This document shows, piece by piece, positions 9,532 to 22,274 of a stretch of DNA of 24,000 bases; within the stretch, counting starts at the first letter, position 1; each line of letters opens with the position of its first letter. The translations under genes and the position numbers were made by a program. This DNA comes from Parasediminibacterium paludis (GTDB lineage Bacteria > Bacteroidota > Bacteroidia > Chitinophagales > Chitinophagaceae): contig NZ_JBHSDC010000002.1 in the NCBI RefSeq assembly GCF_042651445.1, forward strand, positions 679,148-703,147. Direction: 5' to 3'. The notes beneath the pieces are model-generated. The model saw only the letters and a list, made by a program, of their open reading frames with translations. It was not told the origin of the DNA and searched no databases.

Positions 9532-9671
9532 TTTTTAATTACTATATTAAGGAAATCATACTTACTAATCAGTAATAGGTTAATTTCCTATCAGTTTACA
9601 TATGTTTTAGCATCATCAGCCAAGCATTATTGTATCAAGTCATCGCTTAAATAGGCTGAGACATTTTCATT

Positions 9672-10739
9672 ATGGCAATTCAAAAAATAACGATTCAAGC
9701 ATACTTACAAGAACCACATAATTACTTATTGCTAGATGTAAGAAGTCCGGGTGAATATGCACACGCACATATACCCAATGCCATCAGTTTGCCATTATTT
9801 AATAACGAAGAACGAAGTGTTGTGGGTACCGCCTACAAACAAGAAAGCCGTGAAAATGCTATAAAAATTGGTCTGAAATATTTTGGACCAAAAATGGCAG
9901 AAATGGTAGAGGCAGTTGAAAAAATTTTAGCTAAACATAACCGGAAACCGAACAGCCCTAGTGCTACAAGTACAAAAATAGTGGTGCATTGCTGGCGAGG
10001 CGGTATGCGTAGTGCAGGCGTTGCTTGGCTTTTAGATTTATATGGCTTTGATGTATACACCATAATTGGCGGTTATAAATCTTACCGACATTGGGTAATG
10101 CAACAGTTTGATAAAGACTACCACTTTAAAGTCGTTGGAGGCTTTACTGGTAGTGGTAAAACAGAAATATTACAAATATTAAAGCAGGCGAATGAAGTGG
10201 TTATTGATTTGGAAGCATTAGCACAGCACAAAGGCTCCACGTTTGGTAATCTAGAGGCCATTCAGCAACCCTCACAAGAAATGTTTGAGAACATGCTAGC
10301 AATGGCATTGTATGCCGCTAATGACCGCATTATTTGGCTAGAAGATGAAAGTCAACGTATAGGAAATGTGACCTTACCCAACATACTATATCTTAAAAAG
10401 CAATCTTCGATGGTGTATTATATTGATATCCCTTTTGAAGAAAGATTACAGCATTTAGTAGCTAGCTATGGCAGATTCAAAAAAGACCAAATTGTAGCAG
10501 CCATTATGCGTATAAAAAAACGTTTGGGGGGCTTAGAAACGAAAACGGCTATAAATTTTCTTCTAGAAGATGATATACAACATTGCTTTGCAATTTTATT
10601 ACGCTACTACGATAAATACTATTTAAAAGGGTTAGAACAAAATAACCGACAAATTAAAAAAATAACCTGTAATACGGTAAATGCAGTTTGCAATACAAAC
10701 AACCTGCTTGCTATTGTAAAAGAAGAAAAGGCATTATAA
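9672..10739 (+). CDS. selU: tRNA 2-selenouridine synthase
   Basis: 355 aa. N-terminal rhodanese domain with active-site HCWRGGMRS, followed by the P-loop GGFTGSGKT. This is the YbbB/MnmH architecture, and the gene is adjacent to selD. Confidence 0.9.
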   Translation: MAIQKITIQAYLQEPHNYLLLDVRSPGEYAHAHIPNAISLPLFNNEERSVVGTAYKQESRENAIKIGLKYFGPKMAEMVEAVEKILAKHNRKPNSPSATSTKIVVHCWRGGMRSAGVAWLLDLYGFDVYTIIGGYKSYRHWVMQQFDKDYHFKVVGGFTGSGKTEILQILKQANEVVIDLEALAQHKGSTFGNLEAIQQPSQEMFENMLAMALYAANDRIIWLEDESQRIGNVTLPNILYLKKQSSMVYYIDIPFEERLQHLVASYGRFKKDQIVAAIMRIKKRLGGLETKTAINFLLEDDIQHCFAILLRYYDKYYLKGLEQNNRQIKKITCNTVNAVCNTNNLLAIVKEEKAL

Positions 10740-10808
10740 CACCATCTCATTTCTGGTACTTGGTTAACCTCAATTATTTATTTTAGAATTTAAGAAACAC
10801 AACAATCA

Positions 10809-11882
10809 ATGGCAGCAAATTCAAGTATACCCAATCTTAGTGAAATTAAGTTAACACAGTATTCGCATGGTGCTGGTTGTGGCTGTAAAATTTCGCCTAA
10901 GATGCTCGATCAAATATTGGCCACCAATTTAGCCACACCAGATAATGATAAATTGATAGTTGGAAACCATAGTAAAGATGATGCTGCTGTGTATGATATG
11001 GGTAATGGTACGGCGCTAATTGCCACTACTGATTTTTTTATGCCCATCGTTGACGATCCTTATAATTTTGGTAGAATAGCCAGCGCTAATGCCATTAGTG
11101 ATGTTTATGCAATGGGCGGAAAGCCCATATTGGCAATTGCGATATTGGGTTGGCCTATTAATATTTTGCCGCCAGAAGTAGCACAACTAGTAATTGAGGG
11201 CAGCCGTAGTATTTGTAAAGAAGCGGGTATTTCACTGGCTGGCGGTCATAGTATTGATTCCCCAGAACCCATTTTTGGCTTAGCGGTTAATGGCATTGTG
11301 CCTATTGCAAACATTAAGCAAAATAATACAGCACAGCAAGGCGATATACTTTTTCTTACTAAGAAAATAGGGGTTGGTATTTTAACCACTGCAGAAAAAA
11401 ATGGCTTACTAGCAGAAAAGGATACAGCATTGGCCGCTTTACAAATGATGCAATTAAACAAAGTGGGTGAAGCATTAGGTATGATGAAAGAAGTCCATGC
11501 AATGACAGATGTAACTGGTTTTGGTTTACTAGGACACTTGACAGAAATGGCAGAAGGAAGTGATGTAAGCGCAGCCGTGCATTTTGATAAAGTACCATTA
11601 ATAACCCACGATTTGCCAGCCTACATTGATAAAAAATGCGTTCCTGGTGGTACCAATAGAAATTGGGATAGTTATGGCAGCAAAATAGCATTTGCTACTG
11701 GTATCAATCAGGTTTATACAAAAGCCATATTAGCCGATCCGCAAACGAGTGGTGGCTTGCTCATTGCAGTTGCACCAGAAGCCGCTGAACAAGTACAAGC
11801 ATTATTACTATCGCACAATTTATATGCTGAGCCAATAGGTGTGATTACTGAAAAAAATGAATATGTGGTAACTGTGGTGTAG
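10809..11882 (+). CDS. selD: Selenide, water dikinase (selenophosphate synthetase), Cys-type
   Basis: 357 aa, alignable along its whole length to E. coli SelD by eye (LTQYSHGAGCGCKISPK..., TTDFFMPIVDDPYNFGRIA, GGHSIDSPEPIFGLAV, MTDVTGFGLLGH, DPQTSGGLL). The catalytic position is a TGT Cys codon (10878-10880), not TGA. Confidence 0.95.
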   Translation: MAANSSIPNLSEIKLTQYSHGAGCGCKISPKMLDQILATNLATPDNDKLIVGNHSKDDAAVYDMGNGTALIATTDFFMPIVDDPYNFGRIASANAISDVYAMGGKPILAIAILGWPINILPPEVAQLVIEGSRSICKEAGISLAGGHSIDSPEPIFGLAVNGIVPIANIKQNNTAQQGDILFLTKKIGVGILTTAEKNGLLAEKDTALAALQMMQLNKVGEALGMMKEVHAMTDVTGFGLLGHLTEMAEGSDVSAAVHFDKVPLITHDLPAYIDKKCVPGGTNRNWDSYGSKIAFATGINQVYTKAILADPQTSGGLLIAVAPEAAEQVQALLLSHNLYAEPIGVITEKNEYVVTVV

Positions 11883-12030
11883 TGGTAATAGAGGTAGGGA
11901 AGGATTTTTAAAAGATATTTTGCTCATGCAAAAGCCTAAAAGCCAAGAATATTGCGAGTCTGTAAGACTATTTAAATATGACTGCAAAATGGCGTATGAA
12001 ATAAGCTTAATTACTATAAGATATTGTAAG

Positions 12031-12057
12031 AAGCGTACCAGTTTGGTGCGCTTTTTT
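12031..12057 (+). terminator. Rho-independent terminator ~150 nt downstream of selD
   Basis: AAGCGTACC (12031-12039) pairs with GGTGCGCTT (12045-12053) with one G-U pair, across a 5-nt loop. It runs into a TTTTTT tract (12052-12057). Confidence 0.7.
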
Positions 12058-12078
12058 GTTTTTGGGTAAATGGAAGAT

Positions 12079-12310
12079 AAACTAGAGTCACCAAAAAGCA
12101 AGTATGAATTCGCTATAGCGAACTGTAGTCACCAAAAAGCAAACTAGAGTTATAAAAAAGCGAGCATGAGTACACTACAGCGAACTGGAGTCACCAAAAA
12201 GTGAACAGGGGTTACCAAAAACAGAACTCAAGTCACAAAATTTGGAACTCGAGTTCGTTCCAGCGAACTGTAGTCACCAAAAAGCAGATTAGAGTTCTAA
12301 ATATGGAACA
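12079..12310. repeat. Degenerate tandem array of ~11 units of 20-21 bp, approximate consensus AACTNNAGTCACCAAAAAGCG
   Basis: The best-conserved copies contain AGTCACCAAAAAG at 12087-12099, 12127-12139, 12189-12201 and 12272-12284. Diverged copies are GTTATAAAAAAG, GTTACCAAAAAC and GTCACAAAATTT. A ~62-bp higher-order period is visible: 12081-12141 resembles 12142-12203. No ORF is present. Confidence 0.8.
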
Positions 12311-12362
12311 ATAAGAATGAAAATGATACTTGCAAGCGCAAATCTAGTGGATGCAAGAAGCG

Positions 12363-12758
12363 TTAGCTGGTTCCAAGAGCAAAAAAGGTGATTGCATGAG
12401 GTGTTTGGGTGCATACAAAAAGCTTGAGTTGCTTGTAAGAAGGAAAATAGTTGGTAAAAGAAGCTGTAAGTGCTTTTAATATGTATTTTGGTTGATGGAA
12501 GAACTTAAAGTACAAGTTTTCTCTGTAATGTACCACGCCATGTAAAATGGGCTTTTGTATGGCATCTTCATCCACAACAGCAACTTTTAATGTATTGCCT
12601 TGTGCATCAAAAATTCAAGACAAAAGCCATAATTTCCTTTTAAGTCTTTTATTACTTCCACAATTGTAGCTACATCACCTTTAATAAAACCTAACTCAGG
12701 TAGATCTTTTGCTAATTGTATTTCGGTATATATTTCAAAATTATTTACGGTACATCAT
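12363..12758 (-). pseudogene. DUF4926-like small gene, frameshifted
   Basis: Minus-strand reading gives ...NNFEIYTEIQLAKDLPELGFIKGDVATIVEVIKDLKGNYGFCLEF. The frame then breaks at an A5/T5 run (12609-12613) and continues in another frame as DAQGNTLKVAVVDEDAIQKP... (the 12363..12575 track ORF). The ATGATG at 12753-12758 is out of frame with the body. Family assignment is from memory of the DUF4926 pattern (DLPE.GL.KGD.GTIV...EF.D..G.T). Confidence 0.55.
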
Positions 12759-13071
12759 TTATACAGGATATAAATTTCCAAAACGAAAAGTATTATCTGG
12801 CAATTCTTCTAACTAAATTGTAATAACTAATTTGCTTCTCAAAGCATCAACAACAGAAGAATATAAATTATCAAAATCACTTATTCTTGATAAAATAAGA
12901 TCATTTTCTGTCGCTAGTTATTTAATATCAGCTATCAGAATTTCAAAATTTCCTTTGTTATAGCCTAGGCTTTCAAGGAAAATTGATTTGCCATTTTTTA
13001 ATATCCTAACCAAAAAGATAGTCGGTAATTTTTTCTTCTGAAATAGTTATTTGTTCAAGAGATAACCACAT
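12759..13071 (-). pseudogene. DUF6883-like small gene, with one frameshift and two in-frame stops
   Basis: From the ATG (complement of 13069-13071): MWLSLEQITISEEKITDYLFG*, then a frame shift to ...LVRILKNGKSIFLESLGYNKGNFEILIADIK*LATENDLILSRISDFDNLYSSVVDALRSKLVITI*LEELPDNTFRFGNLYPV*. The skeleton (KLTDYLL...GK..F..LGY ... W....P.RF.T.YP) resembles DUF6883 as I recall it. Confidence 0.5.
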
Positions 13072-13105
13072 TAAGTATATTTTGTTGAATAACGATATTG
13101 AATAT

Positions 13106-13134
13106 AAAAAAGCCCCTGCATCTCTGCAAGGGCT
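13106..13134 (-). terminator. Rho-independent terminator of dnaK
   Basis: AGCCCCTGCA (13111-13120) and TGCAAGGGCT (13125-13134) form a 10-bp stem with a 4-nt loop. The single mismatch is a G-U pair only on the minus-strand RNA. The A-run at 13106-13110 gives the U-tail on the minus strand. It lies 39 bp after the dnaK stop. Confidence 0.8.
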
Positions 13135-13172: not shown

Positions 13173-15074
13173 CTATTTTACTTCTTCAAACTGTGCATCT
13201 TCTACTGTATCGCTTGCAGTTTGTGTACTAGCACCTTGGCCAGCAGGCTCTTGTGCAGAAGCACCACCTTGAGCTTGCGCTTTGTAGATGTCTTCGCTTG
13301 CGGCTGTCCATGCAGTGTTCATTTCAGCCATCGCAGTATCAATTGCAGCAATATCTTGATTTTTGTGTGCCTCTTTCAATTTCGTTAATGCCGCTTCAAT
13401 AGGTACTTTTTTATCAGCAGGTATTTTGTCGCCAAACTCTTTAAATTGTTTTTCAGTTTGGAAAATTAGGCTATCAGCTTGGTTGATTTTCTCAACTCTT
13501 TCACGGGCTGCTTTGTCAGCAGCTTCATTCGCTTTTGCTTCCGCTTTCATTTTTTCAACTTCTTCTTTGCTCAAGCCACTACCAGCTTCAATACGTATGT
13601 TTTGCTCTTTACCAGTGCCTTTATCTTTTGCACTTACATGCAACATACCATTCGCATCAATATCAAATGTTACTTCAATTTGCGGTACACCTCTTGGTGC
13701 TGGTGGTATTCCATCTAAGTTAAACATACCAAGGCTCTTGTTTTGGCTAGCCATTGGGCGTTCACCTTGCAATACATGAATTTGTACACCTGGTTGGTTA
13801 TCGCTTGCAGTTGAGTAAACTTCAGTTTTCTTAGTAGGGATGGTTGTATTGCTTGCAATCATCGTAGTCATTACACCGCCCATCGTTTCAATACCAAGAC
13901 TTAAAGGTGTTACGTCTAATAGTAATACATCTTTTACTTCACCAGTTAATACACCACCTTGTATCGCAGCACCTACAGCTACCACTTCGTCAGGGTTTAC
14001 GCCCTTATTTGGTTTTTTGCCAAAGAATTTCTCTACAATTTCTTGTACTTTAGGGATACGTGTACTACCACCTACTAATATTACTTCGTCAATCTGAGAA
14101 ATACTATAACCAGCATCTTTCAACGCAACTTCACATGGTTTTAAGCAACGCGCAAATAAATCATCAGCTAAAGCTTCAAATTTAGCTCTGCTTAATTTTT
14201 TTACTAAGTGTTTAGGTACACCATCAATAGCTGTGATGTATGGTAAGTTAATTTCAGTTTCGTTACCGCTACTTAATTCAACTTTAGCCTTTTCAGCAGC
14301 TTCTTTCAAGCGTTGTAATGCCATAGGATCTTTGCGTAAGTCAATCGCTTCGTCAGCTTTAAACTCATCTGCCAACCAATCCATGATTACTTTATCAAAG
14401 TCATCACCACCTAAGTGTGTATCACCATTGGTGCTTTTTACTTCAAAAACGCCATCACCAAGTTCCAATACAGAAATATCGAATGTACCACCACCAAGGT
14501 CAAACACAGCAATTTTTTGGTCTACGCTCTTCTTATCTAAGCCATAAGCCAAAGCAGCCGCTGTAGGTTCGTTTACAATACGTTTTACATTTAAACCAGC
14601 TATTTCGCCAGCTTCTTTTGTCGCCTGACGTTGTGCATCGTTAAAGTAAGCAGGTACAGTAATTACCGCATCAGTTACTTCAGTACCTAAATAATCTTCA
14701 GCAGTTTTTTTCATTTTTTGCAACACCATCGCAGAAATTTCTTGCGGTGTGTACAATCTGCCATCAATATCTACACGAACGGTATTATTGTCACCTTTTA
14801 CTACTTTATAACCCCAATGGCTTATTTCTTCTGTCACCTCATCAAATCTTCTACCCATGAAACGCTTTACAGACGCAATGGTGTTTTGAGGGTTTGTAAT
14901 AGCTTGACGTTTAGCAGCATCACCCACTTTACGCTCGCCATTTTTCAAAAAGCCAACAATTGAAGGTGTGGTTCTACGTCCTTCCTCATTAGCTATTACA
15001 ACCGGTTCGTTACCTTCCATTACAGAAACGCAACTGTTCGTTGTTCCTAAGTCTATACCAATAATTTTGCCCAT
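13173..15074 (-). CDS. dnaK: Molecular chaperone DnaK (Hsp70)
   Basis: [16 protein letters not shown]..., [22 protein letters not shown] and the full Hsp70 layout. The start is trimmed from the track's 15110 to the ATG at 15074, which restores the canonical [15 protein letters not shown]-terminus. Confidence 0.98.
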
Positions 15075-15363
15075 AATATGTATTTTTACGAAATTCGATA
15101 AGTCAATCATTATGCCACGGCATTTGTAAGTGAAAAATTGGCAGACTGAGCAGGTGATAGTTTTTATGGAACGAACTTTTGTCCTTCAATCGGCAGTAGT
15201 TGCGTCGCACACTGCAACTATTGTCACTTTTTTCAACTTTGTCCAAGGCGAATAGTTGTCTGAACTAGGATTTTGTACGATTTAAAGGATTTTGTGATGA
15301 AAAATTTGCAAAGGCATATAATTTTGTATACTAAACAATAGTAGAAGTTGTATTAAAGTTTCT

Positions 15364-15475
15364 GACTATTGACTATTGACTATTGACTATTGACTATTGA
15401 CTATTGACTATTGACTATTGACTATTGACTATTGACTATTGACTATTGACTATTGACTATTGACTATTGACTATT
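15364..15475. repeat. Perfect heptanucleotide tandem repeat (GACTATT)x16, 112 bp
   Basis: Counted unit by unit: unit starts at 15364, 15371 ... 15469, with no substitutions. The next base (15476) is the A of the hscB ATG. Stops occur in all six frames of the repeat, so it is non-coding. Confidence 0.97.
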
Positions 15476-15985
15476 ATGACCTACTTTGAATTGTTCGATA
15501 TACCAGTAAGCTTGCAAGTAGATGCTGCCGTTGTAAAAGCCAAGTTTTACGAACTCAGCAGAAAATACCACCCTGACTTTTTTTCGCAAGCCACAGAGGC
15601 AGAACAGGAAGAAGCTTTGGAGAAATCATCGCTCTTGAACAAAGCGTTTAAAGTATTTACCAATAAAGACGAAACGCTGAAATATGTGTTGCAGCTAAAA
15701 GGTTTAATAGAAGATGAAGAAAAGTACCAGCTATCCCCCGATTTTTTAATGGAAATGATGGAGCTAAATGAAGCTTTGATGGATGCAAAAATGGAAAGTG
15801 ATGAAGCAGCCATAGCCAATCTCAAATCTCAAATCTCAAATTTGGAAATTCAATTGTATGACAGTATTAGAAGCATTATTGAAAATTATAAAGACGGTGT
15901 TTCTACCCAAGAAGCGCTGTTGCAAGTAAAAGATTATTATTTCAAGAAAAAATATTTATCACGGATTTTGGCAAGTTTGCAATGA
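15476..15985 (+). CDS. hscB: J-domain Fe-S co-chaperone HscB-like protein
   Basis: MTYFELFDIPVSLQVD...KFYELSRKYHPDFF parallels E. coli HscB (MDYFTLFGLPARYQLD...RQYHPDKF), including the HPD motif, followed by a helical C-terminal domain. The start is set to the ATG at 15476; the track's TTG at 15467 lies inside the repeat. Confidence 0.82.
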   Translation: MTYFELFDIPVSLQVDAAVVKAKFYELSRKYHPDFFSQATEAEQEEALEKSSLLNKAFKVFTNKDETLKYVLQLKGLIEDEEKYQLSPDFLMEMMELNEALMDAKMESDEAAIANLKSQISNLEIQLYDSIRSIIENYKDGVSTQEALLQVKDYYFKKKYLSRILASLQ

Positions 15986-16023: not shown

Positions 16024-16107
16024 GCCCAGATGGCGGAATTGGTAGACGCAGCAGACTCAAAATCTGCCGTTCGCAAGGATGTGCAGGTTCGATTCCTGTT
16101 CTGGGCA
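16024..16107 (+). tRNA. tRNA-Leu (anticodon CAA), class II with a long variable arm; CCA not encoded
   Basis: Acceptor stem GCCCAGA/TCTGGGC, D-arm GCG-GAATTGGTAGA-CGC, anticodon stem GCAGA/TCTGC with loop CTCAAAA, T-arm GCAGG-TTCGATT-CCTGT, discriminator A. Confidence 0.93.
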
Positions 16108-16108
16108 C
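16092..16108 (+). repeat. attL core (17-bp direct repeat, part of the functional tRNA)
   Basis: ATTCCTGTTCTGGGCAC, identical to 22386-22402. Confidence 0.85.
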
Positions 16109-16113
16109 TTTTT

Positions 16114-16156
16114 AAAAACGCTGAAAATCAATGCTACATTGAGTTTCAGCGTTTTT
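16114..16156 (+). terminator. Hairpin terminator following the tRNA, carried by the insert
   Basis: AAAAACGCTGAAA (16114-16126) pairs with TTTCAGCGTTTTT (16144-16156) across a 17-nt loop, followed by a T-run. Confidence 0.65.
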
Positions 16157-16168
16157 TATTTATCCTAC

Positions 16169-16192
16169 ACTTACAGTTTTACTGACAGCTTT
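16169..16192 (+). promoter_or_regulatory. Subterminal 24-bp repeat, left copy (candidate recombinase arm-type or accessory site)
   Basis: ACTTACAGTTTTACTGACAGCTTT matches 22251-22274 (ACTTACAATTTAACTGACAGTTTT) at 21 of 24 positions in the same orientation. Confidence 0.55.
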
Positions 16193-16213
16193 GTAATTTC
16201 TTCTTTTTATAAA

Positions 16214-16249
16214 AAAGCCTACTTGAAATCAGCGTTTCAAGTAGGCTTT
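16214..16249. other. Perfect 15-bp-stem hairpin (bidirectional terminator-like)
   Basis: AAAGCCTACTTGAAA (16214-16228) and TTTCAAGTAGGCTTT (16235-16249) with a 6-nt loop. An A-run lies before it and a T-rich stretch after. Confidence 0.6.
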
Positions 16250-16351
16250 CTAATTTTCGTATTTCTCTCATTAACGATTATAACAGACAATACAAGTCAA
16301 TTCAAGTAAACAAATAAGTAAATTAATTAGTCAATAAACCGTACTATTTAT

Positions 16352-16801
16352 ATGAGTAATAAGCTAAAATGTATCTATTGCGGTACTGAATATCCGTACC
16401 GAAAAAATAAGGTGTATTGTTCTCCAAGCTGTAAAACAATGGCTTATAGAGACAGACAAGCTGGCAAAACTATTTTGGGTGAAATGCCAAGTGAAAACTA
16501 TGATGTTGAGCGCAAAGCCTTTTATATGTCCGATTATGAAGGGTGGCAGTATAAAGATGATTTTTCTTTTCAGATATTTTGTTTCTTAATAAAGGGATTG
16601 CCCGAAAATACAAATGAAACCTTTTTGAGAAATTATGCAGCCACAATAGTAAATGATAATAGATTTTATGAGCAAGTTGAAGAAAGTAACCACCCAATAG
16701 GTAAGGAGTTTAAGAAATTTCAAGAACTATTTTTTCAAAATAAATATCAAATTAAAAACGAAAGGTTGTCTGAAAAAATGCAGCCTATAAATCAAAATTA
16801 A
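16352..16801 (+). CDS. Hypothetical protein with an N-terminal 4-Cys zinc ribbon
   Basis: 149 aa. CIYCG-x12-CSPSC followed by KTMAYRDRQ, a C-x2-C...C-x3-C ribbon of the FCS/TRASH-like kind seen in small mobile-element proteins. The rest is unrecognisable. Confidence 0.65.
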   Translation: MSNKLKCIYCGTEYPYRKNKVYCSPSCKTMAYRDRQAGKTILGEMPSENYDVERKAFYMSDYEGWQYKDDFSFQIFCFLIKGLPENTNETFLRNYAATIVNDNRFYEQVEESNHPIGKEFKKFQELFFQNKYQIKNERLSEKMQPINQN

Positions 16802-16812
16802 AAAAATATACT

Positions 16813-17004
16813 ATGGCAAAGAAAATCTTTAAGCTAATCAATGCAGCAACAAAAATTACAGAACTAAGAGACTTTCAAAAATTCAAATTTGAAAATCTGA
16901 AAGAAGGTAGTGAGCAATGGAAAATAGAATATCAATTGTTTTTAGAGTATGACCTACTCGTAAATGTAATTAATGACCACAACGATGGGAGCAAAACTTT
17001 GTAA
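16813..17004 (+). CDS. Hypothetical small protein (63 aa), 11 bp downstream of the zinc-ribbon ORF
   Basis: ATG ORF in a tight tandem arrangement, followed by a strong terminator. No recognisable motif. Confidence 0.5.
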   Translation: MAKKIFKLINAATKITELRDFQKFKFENLKEGSEQWKIEYQLFLEYDLLVNVINDHNDGSKTL

Positions 17005-17008
17005 TTTT

Positions 17009-17041
17009 AAAAGCGGTGAAGTTATCCTTCACCGCTTTTTT
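17009..17041. terminator. Bidirectional terminator between convergent ORFs
   Basis: AAGCGGTGAAG (17011-17021) and CTTCACCGCTT (27-37 of the 170xx block) form a perfect 11-bp stem with a 5-nt loop. A's lie upstream and TTTTTT downstream. The stop of the minus-strand 95-aa ORF lies in the loop. Confidence 0.8.
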
Positions 17042-17309
17042 CTTTAAATAAATCATTGTGCATCCGCTGAACTTCATGTTCCATAATATCAAAAATTTGC
17101 TCTTTTAATTTTGATATTCTTTCAGTTCCATTATAAAGAAGACCACCATCAATTTCATATAAAATAGACATTGCTTCTGTGCAAGAACCTAAGTAATCAT
17201 CAACCATTTCTTGTTCGCTTTCTAATGAATTATTCTCTAATTCATCATCATTCTTTTTTTCGTTTTCCATTTTTAAATTTTTAAAAAGTTCTTGTAGTAA
17301 GTTACTCAT
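17022..17309 (-). CDS. Hypothetical highly acidic small protein (95 aa)
   Basis: By my count 23 Asp/Glu against 10 Lys/Arg. There is an acidic N-terminal tract (ENEKKNDDELENNSLESEQEMVDD). The ATG is embedded in an 11-bp inverted repeat of the iteron motif. Confidence 0.6.
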   Translation of the reverse strand: MSNLLQELFKNLKMENEKKNDDELENNSLESEQEMVDDYLGSCTEAMSILYEIDGGLLYNGTERISKLKEQIFDIMEHEVQRMHNDLFKEKSGEG

Positions 17310-17481
17310 CTTACTACGTTACTACAATTGTAGTAAGATGCTAATTTTTATCTTACTACGCTAAAAATCAAACCAATAAAGGGTTTTGTTGATTTTGTAG
17401 TAAGTTGTAGTAAGTTGTTTTTTCTATCTTACTACACTAAAAGCCAATGCAGTAAAGGCTTTGACGGTTTTGTAGTAAGAT
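17292..17481. promoter_or_regulatory. Iteron field: at least 9 copies of GTAGTAAG/CTTACTAC in both orientations (candidate origin of replication or operator array)
   Basis: ATCTTACTAC at 17308-17317, 17350-17359 and 17426-17435. Its complement GTAGTAAGAT at 17330-17339 and 17472-17481. TTGTAGTAAGTT at 17292-17303, 17395-17406 and 17405-17416. A variant GTTACTAC at 17318-17325. The field lies between the stop of the primase gene (17491) and the start of the 95-aa ORF (17309). Confidence 0.75.
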
Positions 17482-17490
17482 AAAAGTGAA

Positions 17491-19605
17491 TTATACCTTT
17501 TTTATATAGTAACCTTTAACGGGAAACATTTTTTCTAGCCTTTTTGTACCTCTCACAAACCCTAATTTTTTAAGTACACTACCTATTTTTTTAAGACTTA
17601 GTTTGTTTGTATTTGCTCCTTTATGAATAACCATATATTGCAAAATGTCGTTTGCAGTCATAAAATTGCTTTCCTCTTGTTTACTATCAATAGCAAAATA
17701 TGTTGTAATCATTTCCTCCTCAATACTGCGTTCTTCGTAATCCCTATTTATTTCTTCGTTTTCCCTTTTCTCATCTAAGGTTAATTGATACTTAAAGCCA
17801 TTATCAAACAGGTATTTCGCTTCACACCAAACCTTATTTATATCAATATAATTGGGGCTGCCCTTTAACCAGTAGCCCTGTTCAAAACTATCAATCTCAA
17901 AACATAGCCATCTTGCGCTCCCTGTATCATCATTTAAAAACTCATCATTATTGGTACTACCTAAAAAATTAACTCGTCTAGGGTGAAACTGGCGGCGGCG
18001 GCCATAAGGTAAACGCTCGTTTATACTGGCCATACTTATTTTCGCTTTTAGTTGGTTTACATCGTATTTGCTCAAACTGGCTAATTCATCAAGGTTTATA
18101 ATAAAACTTGTTGCCAATGCAATAACTCCGTCTTTATCCATTGCTATATTTTCAACAAAATATTCGTTCAAAGCTGGGGGGCAAAGCCATCTACAAAAAG
18201 AACTTTTACCAATGGTTTGTTCTCGGTTTATAATAACAAAAACATGCTTGTTGAAGTTGTTATTTGTCATTTCTGTAACGGTGCTACATGCAACACAACG
18301 GACTAACATTTTCTTGAAATGCTTATTAAAACGCTCTTGGTTTTTGGCTTTAATTTTCTTACATAATTCGTCAATGTATGAAGGTTCGGTTTGTGGGTTG
18401 TATGTTAGAGAATTGAAATAATCAGTAATGGGATTGAAGAATTTTACAAAATCGCTGTCAAGCAATGATGCAGTTTTTGAAGGCGAATATTTAAAGTAGT
18501 TATGCTCTAATAAACGGCTAATTACATTCTCATTTGCTTCCATCCATAAATTATCATTGCCCTTTGCTTTGTACTCTGTTTTCTCATTTACGATGTTTTT
18601 TCTAAACTCAAACCGTTCGTTTAAAAAGTTTTCAACCTGTACAATTAAAGGGAGGTTTTTATTAGTAGGGTTGGGGTTAATTTGCTCAGTTTCTTTCTTC
18701 GCTTCAACTGTAATTTTCGAGCTGTTATTTGAAATGACAATTCCAAAATCTTTTGCTATACCAAAAAGGCTTTCCCATTTTCTGCTACCATTAGGATTTT
18801 TACAACAAGCTGTGTATTGTTCATCCGTTTTTTGTTGGTTGTAGTTTGATGCAATAGCACTAATTCTTTTAAAATAAGAACGTCCATTTTCACCCAAACC
18901 ATTCGCAATTGCAAAGGCAATGTCTCGCCATTCACTATATCCCTTTCTATTTGTAATATCAATATTTCGGGCTTCTAATTCCTTGCATAAAGCCTCAATA
19001 TCCTGTTGCTTTTTGTCTGTGGCAAATGGTATCTGTTTTCCTGAACTGGTATCTTCTGAAATTATAAAAACAGTGCTTTCTTGGTTGTAATAAAGTTTGC
19101 TATCAGCACTAATAAAAAATGCCCTGCAAACGTCTTTACAAGCTGTATCAATTACAAGGTTATACTTGTATTTAAAATAACTTTCTAGGGCTAAAAATGA
19201 AGGCTTATGCTTTGTGGCATCTATTTTAATGATTGCTTTTAGTCCTAAACCTCTAGGAGATAGAAATAGACTTAAAATAAACGCATCTTGCCTTAATAGT
19301 TCCCTTACGTGGTTGATATTAAAATTGGTTTGGTCTTTTGCATCAATATCAATTTGCATTAAACCGGAATGTTGTTGTAGGCTTTTTGCATCACGTTTAC
19401 CCGGTGCAAATATGCCTGAAAGAGTAGCATAGGGCAAAGCTGCTTTTATTGCGTCCTGTTGCTCACCAGTTGCCTTTCTTAAAGCAATTATTTGCTTAGA
19501 ATATTTACCCTGTTTTATCCAGTCAAGAAAAGTAGAAAGTTCGATTGTAGAATTTTGGTGTTCTCTACTTTTTAAAGGCGATGTGTAGAAAGAAAAATTA
19601 TACAT
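17491..19605 (-). CDS. Replication protein: BT4734-like AEP primase-polymerase N-domain plus a VirE/D5-type P-loop NTPase C-domain
   Basis: 704 aa. The N-terminal region with ...LMQIDIDAKD (DxD-type acidic motif) and ...LSPRGLGLKAII resembles the BT4734/VirE-N primase family. The central region resembles a PriCT-like segment (YSEWRDIAFAIAN). The C-terminal half has Walker A-like REQTIGKS (aa 461-468, nt 18202-18225) and Walker B FIINLDE (aa 501-507). Confidence 0.8.
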   Translation of the reverse strand: MYNFSFYTSPLKSREHQNSTIELSTFLDWIKQGKYSKQIIALRKATGEQQDAIKAALPYATLSGIFAPGKRDAKSLQQHSGLMQIDIDAKDQTNFNINHVRELLRQDAFILSLFLSPRGLGLKAIIKIDATKHKPSFLALESYFKYKYNLVIDTACKDVCRAFFISADSKLYYNQESTVFIISEDTSSGKQIPFATDKKQQDIEALCKELEARNIDITNRKGYSEWRDIAFAIANGLGENGRSYFKRISAIASNYNQQKTDEQYTACCKNPNGSRKWESLFGIAKDFGIVISNNSSKITVEAKKETEQINPNPTNKNLPLIVQVENFLNERFEFRKNIVNEKTEYKAKGNDNLWMEANENVISRLLEHNYFKYSPSKTASLLDSDFVKFFNPITDYFNSLTYNPQTEPSYIDELCKKIKAKNQERFNKHFKKMLVRCVACSTVTEMTNNNFNKHVFVIINREQTIGKSSFCRWLCPPALNEYFVENIAMDKDGVIALATSFIINLDELASLSKYDVNQLKAKISMASINERLPYGRRRQFHPRRVNFLGSTNNDEFLNDDTGSARWLCFEIDSFEQGYWLKGSPNYIDINKVWCEAKYLFDNGFKYQLTLDEKRENEEINRDYEERSIEEEMITTYFAIDSKQEESNFMTANDILQYMVIHKGANTNKLSLKKIGSVLKKLGFVRGTKRLEKMFPVKGYYIKKV

Positions 19606-19634
19606 TTGTGTCCTGTAGGTTTAAGTGATTTTAT

Positions 19635-19660
19635 AGGCTGCTTGGTAGGCAGCCTTTTTT
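19635..19660 (+). terminator. Hairpin plus T6, terminator-like in the plus orientation (faces the primase gene antisense)
   Basis: AGGCTGC (19635-19641) pairs with GCAGCCT (19649-19655) across a 7-nt loop, running into TTTTTT (19655-19660). Confidence 0.5.
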
Positions 19661-19665
19661 ATTGA

Positions 19666-19694
19666 ATAAAAAAGGTGCAACCGTAGTTGCACCT
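19666..19694 (-). terminator. Rho-independent terminator after the Xis/orf75 genes, upstream of the primase gene
   Basis: AGGTGCAAC (19673-19681) and GTTGCACCT (19686-19694) form a perfect 9-bp stem with a 4-nt loop. The A-run at 19667-19673 gives the U-tail on the minus strand. Confidence 0.7.
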
Positions 19695-19715
19695 CCTATT
19701 CAAGATTAATAGGAA

Positions 19716-19943
19716 TTAGCTATTAAAATTCTCGGTTAAATTCAAACTTTTTAAAGTCTTCTTTTTACCAGAACTATCTAGTTCAGCTAATTCAACTCTT
19801 ATGTTCTCATCCTTTTTGATACTGCGTTTACGCAAAATATCATATTGCTTTTCTGCATCGGATTTTGAAGCAAAAGTTTCTTGATACCCTTTTGTTTTAA
19901 CAACGAATTGGGCTGTTTCGCTGCCTTGTGTTTCATTTGCCAT
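19716..19943 (-). CDS. Hypothetical small protein (75 aa)
   Basis: ATG ORF, co-directional with and 46 bp downstream of the HTH gene. Lys/Glu-rich with no recognised motif. Confidence 0.55.
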   Translation of the reverse strand: MANETQGSETAQFVVKTKGYQETFASKSDAEKQYDILRKRSIKKDENIRVELAELDSSGKKKTLKSLNLTENFNS

Positions 19944-19989
19944 GATAATGGTTTTAATGATTAAATAATAATTATTAAAGAGTAGCTAC

Positions 19990-20268
19990 TCACAATTTAA
20001 TGGGCAAAACTTGCCTTGTCTTCAGTGCTTCTAACACTTCAGTTTTGCTGTAAAAAATTTTGTTATCAATACGGGTAAAAGGGATTTTACCGTCATTGCG
20101 CCACTTTTGTAGTGTAGTGGTGCTAATGCTAAAAAGCTGCATTACTTCTTCACTTGAAAGAAGTTTATCCTGTTGAATTTCTCTTTCAGAAAGTACCTTT
20201 CTGACTGTTTGCTCAATTTGAGAAATGAAATCAACTAAAGGGACAGAAATAATAATATTGCCTTGCAT
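19990..20268 (-). CDS. Excisionase/AlpA-type helix-turn-helix DNA-binding protein
   Basis: 92 aa. LLSSEEVMQLFSISTTTLQKWRNDGKIPFTRIDNKIFYSKTEVLEAL is the typical MerR-superfamily Xis/AlpA HTH pattern (..T.LQ.W...G.IP......K..Y....V...L). Confidence 0.75.
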   Translation of the reverse strand: MQGNIIISVPLVDFISQIEQTVRKVLSEREIQQDKLLSSEEVMQLFSISTTTLQKWRNDGKIPFTRIDNKIFYSKTEVLEALKTRQVLPIKL

Positions 20269-20338
20269 AACATTGAAATTGTTAGTGCAAATTGCAATTG
20301 GAATAAATCCTATAAAACTAAATTGGGGGACAAGAAAA

Positions 20339-21028
20339 TTAGTTGTCGGGGGATAGCTTATTTTTTTCTTTCTTCAATGCAAGTAATATTTTTTCTACTT
20401 TTTGGATAGTAGTATCATAAATTAGAACGTCAAAATCATATCCTTTTCTTTCGGCTATATCTTTTCGGGTTTGTTCAGCTTCAAATTTTTTACCAGTTAA
20501 AAAGTGAACCGCAAAACCAATTGCGGTATCATTTTTTTCAAATAATACATTTTCAGATGCTTTAAGAAAGAGTTGTAAAATTTGCTTTTGTTTAATTTCT
20601 TCTTTGGTATGAGAAATGCTTTTAGTTATATCTGTTTTTCTTTTAGCTATGTTGATTTTGTTTTCTTTCCAATACCTTTTTCCCGTTTTATTTTCCATTA
20701 TTTCAATCTCGCTTTTGACAAACATTTCAAAATCGAATAATAATGAAGATGTGTATTCAAAACTCATATATTCCTGAAATTCATTTTTAAAAGGCTGTTC
20801 AATTTGATATTTACAGAAAAATTTTAGATAGTCATTTTCAGAAATTGCTCCTTTTATTTTTTCAAGTAAGTCATATAAATTGTCTAGTTTAAGATTAATT
20901 TCTTCAAAACTGTCTAGCCATTTTGAGAAATTATCACCTTGAAATAATAAGTCGATTGGGTTGTAAATATTATTCTCATAATTCAAAAGTTGTATTCTAA
21001 AACTTTCAATATCAGTTTGTTGTGTCAT
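20339..21028 (-). CDS. Hypothetical protein (229 aa), start 2 bp after the integrase stop
   Basis: ATG at the complement of 21026-21028; the integrase stop codon occupies 21031-21033. Predicted helical and Lys/Glu/Phe-rich. No family recognised. Confidence 0.6.
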   Translation of the reverse strand: MTQQTDIESFRIQLLNYENNIYNPIDLLFQGDNFSKWLDSFEEINLKLDNLYDLLEKIKGAISENDYLKFFCKYQIEQPFKNEFQEYMSFEYTSSLLFDFEMFVKSEIEIMENKTGKRYWKENKINIAKRKTDITKSISHTKEEIKQKQILQLFLKASENVLFEKNDTAIGFAVHFLTGKKFEAEQTRKDIAERKGYDFDVLIYDTTIQKVEKILLALKKEKNKLSPDN

Positions 21029-21030
21029 AA

Positions 21031-22239
21031 TTATCTTTTTTGTGTTCTACTTAATTTCATTATTTCAACTTTATTAAAGTCATCATCGTTCTGTATATAC
21101 TTTTTAAGTGTTTGAAAACTGGCATGTCCTACAACACGCCTAACAACTTCTTGTGGTACGCCTATTTGAATGCAATTAGTTATAAAACTGTGCCTTGCAA
21201 CGTGCCAAGTCATCATTTCCCAAGCCTCAAATATTTCTTCTTTAGTTTGCCTACTTTGCTTTTGTGTGTAGTTAAAAGGTCTTACTAGGTTAGCTTTTTT
21301 ACCTATTTCTTTCAAATAGTCATTACCCTTTTGGTTTGATATTGTAGGCAATGGTTGGTTGTCGTTCCAGTATTTATTAAACAGTTCTAGGAGTTCAGGA
21401 ATAACAGGGATTTTAACAGGTTCGTTTGTCTTTAATGCTACTTTGTTTATAAAGCCATTTTGTAAGTGGATAGGCTTTAACGTTACTAGATCACTATAAC
21501 GCAACCCACAATAGCAACCCATTAAAAATAAGTCTCTCACCCTGTCTAATCGTGGCTCCAGTTCGACTTTTGAAAGTGCAATAATTTCATCGTGTTTTAA
21601 AAAGAAATGGTCTTTACCGTCTTCATTTGGGATTTTCCATTTTAGGTATTGTGAAGTAGTATGAAATGATTTTTCTTTTGCCCAATTGAGAAATGTTTTA
21701 AGGTTCTTAATGTAGAAACCAAAAGAGTTATCATACATGCCTAAAAAGTCTCTAAAACGCTTGTAAAAATCTGCATCAAAATCAGTAAAAGAAATTGGGG
21801 CTGAAAGTGTATCTGAATAGGTTTTCAAATACTTAAAAGTTGTATTGTAGCCCTTTACGGTTCTAGCTGCTTTGTCTGAACCATGACTTTCAATAAATTT
21901 TTGAAATAATGATAGCGGTTTAAAATCTTGTATTTCAATAGAGTTTGACCAGGCTAACTGTGAAACAATACTTTCTTTGTTTACCTGGTGTCCTAAACGT
22001 TCAAACTTTAAAACTATTCCTTCAATTTCATTTTGCTGTTCTTCAAAGATTGCGTTAAACTCATTGTAGTTGGCTCGTGTTCGTTTTACTTTTTGATTTT
22101 CCTTATCCCAATGCTTTTTTTCTATTGCTTGACCTGTACTAATCCTAAAACGGTTACCTTTATAGTGAACAGAATGATAAACCGTAACAGGTTTATCGAC
22201 CGTTAATTTATCCAAATTCAAGTTCAATTTTACTCCCAT
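21031..22239 (-). CDS. int: Tyrosine site-specific recombinase (integrase), Bacteroidota Arm/SAM-like/catalytic layout
   Basis: C-terminal catalytic motifs GLRYSDL (Arg), HVARHSFIT (H-x-x-R) and GHASFQTLKKY (His...Tyr). The N-terminus (VYHSVHYKGNRFRISTGQAIEKKHWD) resembles the Arm DNA-binding domain of Bacteroidota integrases. The start is set to the ATG at 22239 rather than the track's TTG at 22251. Confidence 0.9.
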   Translation of the reverse strand: MGVKLNLNLDKLTVDKPVTVYHSVHYKGNRFRISTGQAIEKKHWDKENQKVKRTRANYNEFNAIFEEQQNEIEGIVLKFERLGHQVNKESIVSQLAWSNSIEIQDFKPLSLFQKFIESHGSDKAARTVKGYNTTFKYLKTYSDTLSAPISFTDFDADFYKRFRDFLGMYDNSFGFYIKNLKTFLNWAKEKSFHTTSQYLKWKIPNEDGKDHFFLKHDEIIALSKVELEPRLDRVRDLFLMGCYCGLRYSDLVTLKPIHLQNGFINKVALKTNEPVKIPVIPELLELFNKYWNDNQPLPTISNQKGNDYLKEIGKKANLVRPFNYTQKQSRQTKEEIFEAWEMMTWHVARHSFITNCIQIGVPQEVVRRVVGHASFQTLKKYIQNDDDFNKVEIMKLSRTQKR

Positions 22240-22250
22240 GATTAAAAACA

Positions 22251-22274
22251 ACTTACAATTTAACTGACAGTTTT
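22251..22274 (+). promoter_or_regulatory. Subterminal 24-bp repeat, right copy (in the integrase leader)
   Basis: ACTTACAATTTAACTGACAGTTTT matches 16169-16192 at 21 of 24 positions. It lies 12 bp upstream of the int ATG on the opposite-strand numbering. Confidence 0.55.

Follow-up and report, generated by a model that had tools for sequence, protein, structure and literature searches.

Why does a long and perfect heptanucleotide repeat stand directly against the start codon of hscB, a gene for a housekeeping Fe-S co-chaperone? We addressed this question in a 24,000-nucleotide stretch of Parasediminibacterium paludis (contig NZ_JBHSDC010000002.1; the whole stretch is called the window below, and positions are counted from its first letter), in which 16 uninterrupted, substitution-free copies of GACTATT, 112 bp in all, occupy the plus strand between the divergent genes dnaK and hscB. 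With a probability that we put at about 0.58, the array is a slippage-driven heptanucleotide simple sequence repeat (SSR) in a permissive hscB leader free of a Shine–Dalgarno (SD) sequence, perfect by turnover, variable between strains and of little consequence over the range of copy numbers observed. It would then belong with the cyanobacterial short tandemly repeated repetitive (STRR) sequences and other long SSRs with units of 5–11 bp.

A perfect heptanucleotide array at the hscB start codon

Direct reading of the sequence gives an array that ends at 15475, with the hscB ATG (15476–15478) following directly. Tandem Repeats Finder reported the repeat at 15363–15475, with a period of 7, 16.1 copies, 100% matches, no indels and a score of 226. 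A two-unit GACTATT probe allowing up to two mismatches gave 15 matches, all within the array; dinucleotide shuffles gave a mean of 0.28 and none of 100 reached 15. The array is a 7-bp head-to-tail repeat far beyond chance length, as long SSRs and STRR sequences are, and it is the only intergenic array in the 24-kb window to reach three copies. These analyses confirmed the perfect 16-unit array abutting the hscB ATG that a first-pass annotation of this DNA had described. Its statement that the array contains stops in all six frames was borne out by translation, which gave TGA in each forward frame and TAG in each reverse frame.

The start codons on either side of the array are well defined. HscB homologues carry PF00226 and PF07743, and the hscB ATG at 15476 is kept in every relative examined. 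On the other side, the profile alignment begins at residue 13 of a 645-aa open reading frame (ORF), which therefore places the dnaK ATG at 15074 and makes the divergent region 401 bp long (15075–15475). The array fills 28% of it, close to the earlier estimate of about a third of roughly 400 bp. It shares the strand of hscB, its last base is at −1 from the ATG, and it has no purine-rich motif. A TTG at 15467 (position −9) is in frame with the ATG (TTG ACT ATT ATG), and it had been suggested that a change of one unit would shift the frame if this codon were ever used. That suggestion fails: the array is anchored at the ATG by its 3′ end, and the TTG and its frame are unchanged by the gain or loss of units.

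The array lies downstream of a conserved, putative promoter box

We aligned the dnaK–hscB spacer with those of eight relatives whose hscB genes show 79–98% identity. Approximately 250 bp next to the dnaK ATG are strongly conserved; this conservation ends abruptly just after a TAnnTTTG box, and the leader beyond it is hypervariable among the eight relatives. The primary promoter of Bacteroidota has TAnnTTTG as its −7 element (PMC6847099), and the box is a putative promoter of hscB. A motif upstream of it, GATTTTGTGAT, is a possible −33 region or regulator site. The array begins approximately 37 bp downstream of the box and is most likely transcribed 5′ leader of hscB rather than promoter spacer, because it lies downstream of an element conserved in all eight relatives. 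Judged from the box, the hscB transcription start site would lie near 15330–15335, and the array would then form most of a leader of approximately 145 nt; the mean leader length in Flavobacterium johnsoniae is 33 nt (PMC6847099). The stretch between box and array (15327–15363) could not be aligned with relatives other than the metagenome contig L121, described below. It contains AATAGT, which is complementary to GACTATT and pairs weakly with the array in the minimum free energy (MFE) structure.

The position of the array bears on what slippage could do. The hexamer TTGACT, noted earlier as resembling a sigma70-type −35 element, is indeed formed at each unit junction; a −35 role does not follow, as the consensus is the wrong one for the phylum and the TAnnTTTG box lies upstream. 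A sigma70-style scan gave TTTGCA-16-TATACT at 15305–15332 as the sole intergenic match on the plus strand, and this too is upstream of the array. With the whole array between the conserved −7 box and the ATG, slippage would change only the length of the leader and not the spacing of promoter elements, so that of the two consequences proposed for a change in copy number, an altered leader would stand and an altered promoter spacing would not. An effect on dnaK, which had also been considered, is unlikely, the array being 289 bp from the dnaK ATG and beyond the hscB promoter, with the dnaK-proximal 250 bp independently conserved.

Copy number differs between strains and the tract appears to be homogenized

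The closest HscB homologue (P0002, 99% amino-acid identity) is encoded on an independent metagenome contig of the Joint Genome Institute (JGI), L121, which matches the window at 95.5% identity over 3 kb and at 98.1% nucleotide identity in hscB. At the same site before its hscB ATG, L121 carries 10 units of GACTATT compared with 16 in the window. Both arrays are contig-internal with unique flanks on both sides. The repeat is non-coding and its length differs in unit steps between strains, as in the SSR class, in line with the earlier expectation of a slippage-type SSR whose copy number differs between assemblies. Exact-protein look-ups with the HscB and DnaK of the window found no other assembly with an identical protein, and a metagenome scan for HscB relatives returned only relatives of at most 69% identity, useful for breadth but not for strain comparison.

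Neither array contains a substitution, whereas the adjoining unique intergenic DNA differs at 25 of 289 aligned positions (8.7%). At this rate the arrays should have 6–10 substitutions, and they would have none with a probability of at most 0.002; at the overall divergence of 4.5%, hand computation gives probabilities of about 0.04 and 0.007. Perfect arrays between diverged flanks therefore indicate that the tract has been homogenized faster than it has been mutated, and the view that the lack of degeneration reflects active homogenization is upheld by the contrast between zero substitutions and a flank divergence of 4.5–8.7%.

A third GACTATT array abuts the hscB ATG of a Logan contig (L213; HscB 84% identical), which ends inside the repeat, the pattern typically left where a repeat halts an assembler. 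The 30 nt of repeat left there (L213 1–30) we take to be k−1 for a k-mer size of 31, and contigs L005, L069 and L094 also start, at position 1, within GACTATT arrays. Arrays of this unit fragment short-read assemblies, and copy numbers from assemblies need care. Perfect tandem repeats are hard to assemble, and four arrays at contig ends (L005, L069, L094 and L213) illustrate the difficulty; nevertheless, that mis-assembly created the perfect array is extremely improbable, since three independent assemblies (the window, the JGI contig and the Logan contig) have GACTATT abutting the hscB ATG and the array is flanked by unique sequence within both the window and L121, so that only the exact number 16 is open. 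The array is real, not an artefact, and its copy number differs between strains.

Unrelated heptamers occupy the hscB leaders of relatives

Heptamers of other sequence were found at the same site in relatives. Approximately five degenerate units of the AATCTCA/AATCAAA/AATCGCT type directly precede the hscB ATG in L122, L123 and L208, and a shorter AATCTCA/AATCAGA/AATCTTT remnant does so in L204–L207. CCAGTAA/CCAGAAA/CCAGCAA units precede it in L210 and L211, and L212 has about 12 TAACCAG/CAACCAG units, also reported by Tandem Repeats Finder. Among distant relatives, heptamers run up to the start in L138 (CACCATT), L140 (ATTCACC), L154 (CTAACCA-like) and L162 (ATTACAA), as well as in L187/L188 (TTTGACT/TTTCACT, about nine units). 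Most of these distant hscB relatives (52–69% identity) have no array at the site and, because of this, the array does not appear to be needed for hscB expression.

In a neighbour-joining tree of hscB, L213 with its GACTATT array is not sister to the pair formed by the window and L121; the lineage nearest to that pair is L204, which has the AATCTCA-type remnant. Built from 510 nt, the tree is weak, whereas the pairwise identities, at 84% (L213) vs 90%, are clear-cut. On these sequences, either GACTATT is old and has been repeatedly replaced, or it has arisen twice, or the leader has been exchanged.

Two further resemblances concern the hscB coding sequence (CDS) itself. The perfect AATCTCA run inside the hscB CDS of the window (Table 1) has the unit of the L122 and L123 leader arrays, and L212 has 4.4 copies of GTTGCAA at the same CDS position, with protein length unchanged. 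In addition, the CDS of most relatives starts ATGAC(C/T)TATT (15476–15490 in the window), that is, GAC-TATT with one extra base, and in Nostocales many GACTATT and AATGACT arrays run into ATGAC(T/C) starts. This may be a coincidence or a hint as to how arrays are seeded. We rejected seeding of the unit from the CDS start as an explanation: it is a resemblance only, and not general to other units.

The leader is predicted to be unstructured

Folding predictions set this leader apart from sequences of similar composition. The (GACUAUU)16 RNA alone is predicted to be fully unpaired (MFE 0.0, compared with about −15 kcal/mol for composition-matched shuffles). The whole leader with 45 nt of CDS gave an MFE of −13.1 against −21.6 ± 3.0 for dinucleotide shuffles (z = +2.87); none of 200 shuffles folds less well, and the leader is unpaired in the centroid structure. 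On the sense strand, the arrays of L212, L123, L138 and L187 are also predicted to be structure-free, a property shared by 45% (GC = 2) and 26% (GC = 3) of arrays made from random heptamers. Searches of the intergenic region against Rfam gave no match at the gathering threshold or at a permissive one.

In F. johnsoniae, SD-independent initiation is positively determined by low structure, depletion of AUG and A at −3, −6, −12 and −13 (PMC6847099). The GACTATT unit has no AUG and, in the register seen here, puts A at −3, −6 and −13. The notion that A stands at −6 and −13 in all arrays had to be abandoned, and the argument from A phase is weak, because L138 and L140 do not keep these positions.

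We then varied copy number in silico and calculated the predicted cost of opening the region from −18 to +12. This was 7–9 kcal/mol with 0–3 units and fell to 4.0 with four, 2.8 with six, 2.3 with 10, 1.9 with 16 and 1.7 kcal/mol with 40 units. By these predictions the array shields the start codon from the unique sequence at the 5′ end of the leader, and the alleles with 10 and 16 units both lie on the plateau. Slippage would also leave the ribosome-contact sequence from −1 to −20 unchanged, because the repeat itself forms that region.

Heptamer arrays are widespread and abut gene starts and ends alike

A scan of 185,579 species genomes for three tandem GACTATT units found at least 120 places. 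Most of the matches listed are in Nostocales (Nostoc, Calothrix, Anabaena, Aliinostoc and Fischerella), and others are in Chitinophagaceae, Saprospiraceae, Flavobacteriaceae, Prevotellaceae, other Bacteroidales, Chlorobium and a few more. In 0.93 Mb around the matches listed, perfect arrays of at least three copies numbered 300 at period 7, about 130 of them being the seed matches themselves, compared with 13, 2, 4, 6, 18 and 4 at periods 4, 5, 6, 8, 9 and 12, respectively, and none at periods 10 and 11. Approximately 40 different heptamer units occur in these stretches. Those found alongside GACTATT include AATGACT, AACAGTC, ACTGGGG (CCCCAGT) and AACTGAT (TAACTGA), which, judged by their letters, are one-base variants of GACTATT, classical cyanobacterial STRR units and the TAACTGA of MacGregor; the last (canonical AACTGAT) appeared only in a few Nostocales loci. 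A preference for period 7 and multiple related units, both traits of the SSR class, are present in the carrier-genome stretches surveyed. The contig of L212 (hscB 82% identical) has an intergenic region (L042), 26 kb away, that is full of ACTGGTT/GCTGGTT and GACTATT arrays. Literature searches with the GACTATT repeat string in any rotation found no paper, and searches with STRR unit strings returned unrelated papers only.

Orientation and distance to genes were counted over the matches listed (120 loci), with genes called as the longest non-overlapping ORFs from the first ATG, a crude procedure under which ORFs end in the arrays, as these contain stops. The intergenic regions that contain heptamer arrays are of tandem, divergent and convergent type. 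Of the Bacteroidota GACTATT arrays within 60 nt of a predicted start, three are forward and five reverse. Relative to uniform placement within each spacer, Bacteroidota arrays come within 14 nt of the gene at six of 33 start flanks (2.2 expected) and 10 of 39 stop flanks (4.3 expected); cyanobacterial arrays come within 2 nt at seven start flanks (2.6 expected) and 23 stop flanks (3.9 expected). Enrichment at stops is at least as great as at starts. Lying flush with a coding boundary therefore characterizes the class rather than start codons; a general rule that arrays mark start codons had to be discarded. The pattern fits arrays filling tolerated intergenic space left free by selection. What had been taken for a singular contingency locus on a chaperone gene is thus instead one case of a widespread class of heptamer arrays.

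Comparison with known repeat systems

The closest parallel is the TAACTGA repeats of Beggiatoaceae, cyanobacteria and five Bacteroidetes, which reach 43 copies in Bacteroidetes, differ by 7-nt indels between strains and, in close relatives, are lacking at the same site or replaced there by other heptamers (MacGregor, 2015; PMC4679880). Like them, the hscB array consists of forward tandem 7-nt units ending 0–1 nt before an SD-free start codon, has stops in all forward frames, can be long, differs between strains in 7-nt steps and gives way in relatives to other heptamers or to none; genes downstream of the TAACTGA repeats are likewise of any function, housekeeping included. The unit differs, GACTATT being identical at four of seven positions (register compared by eye). 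Moreover, a single intergenic array of at least three copies in the 24-kb window contrasts with 169 sets in the Maribeggiatoa genome (PMC4679880), and the Bacteroidota sample among the matches listed shows no orientation rule and abuts stops as much as starts.

The STRR units of Calothrix PCC 7601 reportedly comprise CCCCAGT, TTGGTCA and CAACAGT, as described by Mazel and colleagues in 1990. Passages of PMC2670836 and PMC4692102 mention such cyanobacterial STRR heptanucleotide sequences. As with STRR, we are dealing with intergenic 7-bp tandem arrays that have no established function, and among the matches listed Nostocales have many GACTATT arrays, with CCCCAGT-type and CAACAGT-type arrays next to them; indeed, GACTATT is one substitution away from GACTGTT, the reverse complement of AACAGTC, itself a rotation of the STRR unit CAACAGT. 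The host here is a member of Bacteroidota, and the array is a single locus within the window, unlike the dispersed family of heterocystous cyanobacteria. More broadly, heptamers have been described as the most abundant class of long SSRs, with polymerase slippage proposed as their origin (Mrazek, 2007, as cited in passages of PMC4679880 and PMC4692102). G-rich heptamer SSRs are known from Xanthomonas (GGGAATC) and Nostoc (GGGGAYT), and two Xanthomonas species have repeats of different length and sequence at the same intergenic sites (Rehm et al., 2015; PMC4692102). Over-representation of period 7, intergenic position, different repeats at one site in relatives and a proposed slippage origin are all shared with our array, which, unlike the G-quadruplex-capable G-rich heptamers, is AT-rich and has no G-run.

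A likeness to the hmw1A/hmw2A (ATCTTTC)n repeats of Haemophilus influenzae had also been drawn. In hmw1A the repeat is transcribed as 5′ untranslated region (UTR), expression falls with repeat number, and the repeat pairs with a G-rich arm in a long hairpin that is cleaved by RNase III (PMC12721329, PMC8262952). The comparison is apt in so far as both are strain-variable heptanucleotide SSRs of at least 10 units between promoter and start and would both be transcribed as leader. It breaks down over the hairpin, since the hscB leader has no complementary arm and is predicted to be less structured than every shuffle, and over the gene, a housekeeping co-chaperone in an environmental organism rather than an adhesin.

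Weighing the explanations

Tolerated slippage does not account equally well for everything observed. In many lineages, with units unrelated to one another, a heptamer array has persisted or reappeared at the hscB ATG, and two non-sister lineages have GACTATT itself; pure drift explains this less easily than selection or a sequence-specific process would. The sense arrays are uniformly structure-free in prediction, while the L212 array read in antisense is predicted to fold at −30.6 kcal/mol, which suggests a filter or selection acting on RNA. In cyanobacteria, GACTATT arrays no more than 60 nt from a predicted start are mostly forward (25:6), and many end at 0–9 nt. Lastly, copy numbers were taken from assemblies, with two full-length alleles only, and the exact figure of 16 is open to assembly error. 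All of these count against our reading. The first three would be expected if the array were a selected leader for SD-independent initiation, acting as an unstructured landing pad or as a multi-site target for a protein that binds single-stranded RNA (ssRNA), be it ribosomal protein bS1, a cold-shock protein or one resembling CsrA, for example, with copy number tuning HscB synthesis. MacGregor (PMC4679880) put forward a role of this kind for the TAACTGA repeats. Such a role would also agree with the at least five unit families abutting the hscB ATG, with the favourable A positions, with a gain in predicted accessibility of 5–6 kcal/mol at 4–6 or more units, with the mostly forward TAACTGA sets that end about 1 nt before start codons (PMC4679880) and with a study of Nostoc 7120 in which deleting heptamer repeats altered recO reporter activity. 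We nonetheless hold it to be a minority possibility, tentative at best: the Bacteroidota arrays near starts show no orientation bias, the orientation counts themselves rest on crude first-ATG calls, stops are abutted even more often than starts and arrays are found between convergent genes as well, L138 and L140 do not preserve A at −6 and −13, most hscB relatives at 52–69% identity do without an array, and the window has no second one. The more sweeping proposition, that heptamer arrays are selected, modular, SD-independent initiation leaders across clades, we consider doubtful, although a Chitinophagaceae-like clade appears to have kept an array flush with the hscB ATG while the unit turned over at least three times, and GACTATT arrays at Nostocales start codons show a 4:1 bias towards the forward orientation. 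If true, it would call for a factor that reads a 7-nt register (bS1 or another ssRNA binder of the oligonucleotide/oligosaccharide-binding (OB) fold) or for a dedicated repeat-generating activity, and the STRR and TAACTGA repeats of three phyla would then share one explanation.

Reversible switching or grading of hscB, perhaps also of dnaK, by slippage as a form of bet-hedging, in the manner of hmw1A/hmw2A, is improbable. A long perfect tract that is polymorphic between strains and consists of 7-bp units in a probable 5′ UTR, as in hmw1A, is what such a locus would present, but the array is outside the ORF and not between promoter elements, so that the defining effect on frame or promoter spacing does not arise from the sequence as we read it. 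Moreover, the initiation context would be independent of copy number by sequence logic and by the predicted accessibility plateau, the hairpin between repeat and complementary arm that hmw1A requires is missing from a leader less structured than 200 of 200 shuffles, the gene is a housekeeping one, the dnaK control region is separately conserved some 290 bp away, and arrays of the same kind occur in many unrelated intergenic contexts. Improbable, too, is an action at the level of DNA, in which TGAC-containing heptamers would serve as protein-binding sites, or as structural or recombinogenic elements, affecting the divergent pair or rearrangement. Related units do have a TGAC core in common, a Nostoc study speculated on a repeat-binding protein, a rearrangement role has been suggested for very long TAACTGA arrays (PMC4679880), and synteny is broken directly downstream of hscB in every relative. 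However, that break lies at the 3′ end of a tRNA-Leu gene (16108–16110) beside an integrase-bearing island, which led us to reject the array as its cause; dnaK–hscB adjacency is kept in all close relatives whatever the array, and different units at one site argue against a single sequence-specific DNA binder.

Tolerated slippage in the leader would work as follows. The array would be transcribed as hscB 5′ leader, between a Bacteroidota-type −7 box and the start codon, where slipped-strand mispairing would expand and contract it in 7-bp steps, leaving no substitutions and giving 16 copies in one strain and 10 in another. In Bacteroidia, initiation dispenses with an SD sequence and needs a leader that is unstructured, AUG-free and A-containing, requirements that (GACUAUU)n would satisfy, and any copy number of about three or more would present the same context from −1 to −20. 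Slippage would then alter leader length alone, with little effect on expression expected within the observed range, and the array would be at most an insulating, unstructured spacer whose benefit saturates above about six units. Both transcription of the array and its near-neutrality we infer. The class has been described before and is poorly understood, and the array does not look like an on/off switch. Mildly new here are the GACTATT unit, absent from the literature searched, and the leader of a single gene that carries at least five different heptamer arrays among its orthologues.

Other features of the window

The coordinates of the array and of the features around it are collected in Table 1.

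Table 1. Features of the dnaK–hscB locus (positions in the window)
Feature	Position	Strand	Evidence
(GACTATT)x16 perfect array, probable hscB 5′ leader	15364..15475	+	Direct reading, Tandem Repeats Finder, shuffles; x10 in L121, contig end in L213
hscB CDS, 169 aa, J-domain and HSCB_C	15476..15985	+	NCBIfam HscB profiles match from residue 1; ATG conserved
dnaK, divergent neighbour, ATG 15074	13173..15074	−	NCBIfam DnaK equivalog, E=0; alignment from residue 13 of 645-aa ORF
TAATTTTG, matches Bacteroidota −7 element TAnnTTTG; putative hscB promoter	15319..15326	+	TA..TTTG invariant in 8/8 aligned relatives
GATTTTGTGAT motif upstream of −7 box	15288..15298	+	Nearly invariant in 8 relatives
Unique lineage-specific stretch between −7 box and array, contains AATAGT	15327..15363	+	Common only to window and L121
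(AATCTCA)x3.4 perfect run in hscB CDS, in frame (NLKSQISN)	15818..15841	+	Tandem Repeats Finder

Upstream of dnaK, an inverted repeat at 15192–15225 (an AGTTGC...GCAACT stem followed by a T-run) lies approximately 120–150 nt from its ATG. The stem is retained in the eight relatives; its loop is replaced by a CCCGATAGCTATYGGG-type palindrome in L121 (~2160–2205) and L204 and by a 32-nt insert in L210. The same CCGATAGCTATCGGG palindrome is found at a different place in L123 (~2875–2895) and so may be a small mobile palindromic element. No hscA was in view beside the divergent dnaK–hscB pair in the window or in L210/L212, and the J-protein HscB may work with the general DnaK in this lineage. In the syntenic relatives L210 and L212, genes for a Fer2 ferredoxin and an IscX-like protein (Fe-S_assembly) lie approximately 8 kb away.

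A tRNA-Leu(CAA) gene (16024–16108) directly follows hscB, and homology with every relative stops at 16110, the tRNA 3′ end, with different genes after hscB in each. Downstream of the tRNA are a VapE/primase-like gene of 704 aa (17491–19605), an HTH_17 excisionase-like gene (19990–20268) and a tyrosine integrase gene (21031–22251); by its gene content, 16110–22251 looks like an integrative element inserted at the tRNA. On the far side of dnaK, a block at 9536–13106 with mnmH (tRNA 2-selenouridine synthase, 9672–10739) and selD (10809–11882) is absent from the otherwise syntenic L210 and L212, which would reflect either insertion in the window or loss in those relatives. Non-coding DNA downstream of selD (12079–12300) contains repeats of approximately 21 nt (GAGTCACCAAAAAGC), also scored as a 62-bp period, which are partly conserved in L210 and L212 and had no Rfam match.

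Implications

To our knowledge, the record of heptanucleotide arrays goes back to 1990 in cyanobacteria and to cross-phylum work of 2007–2015, with no function or origin established. The hscB leader provides a compact test case for them, with a defined gene start, a conserved promoter box, natural alleles of 10 and 16 units and orthologous leaders built from unrelated units, in a phylum whose rules of SD-independent initiation are measurable in Flavobacterium johnsoniae reporter systems. Should the array reflect nothing more than slippage tolerated by an unconstrained leader, it would still help to tell strains apart and would caution those who assemble and annotate genomes; should the number of copies or the identity of the unit matter, the heptanucleotide repeat class would gain its first mechanism.

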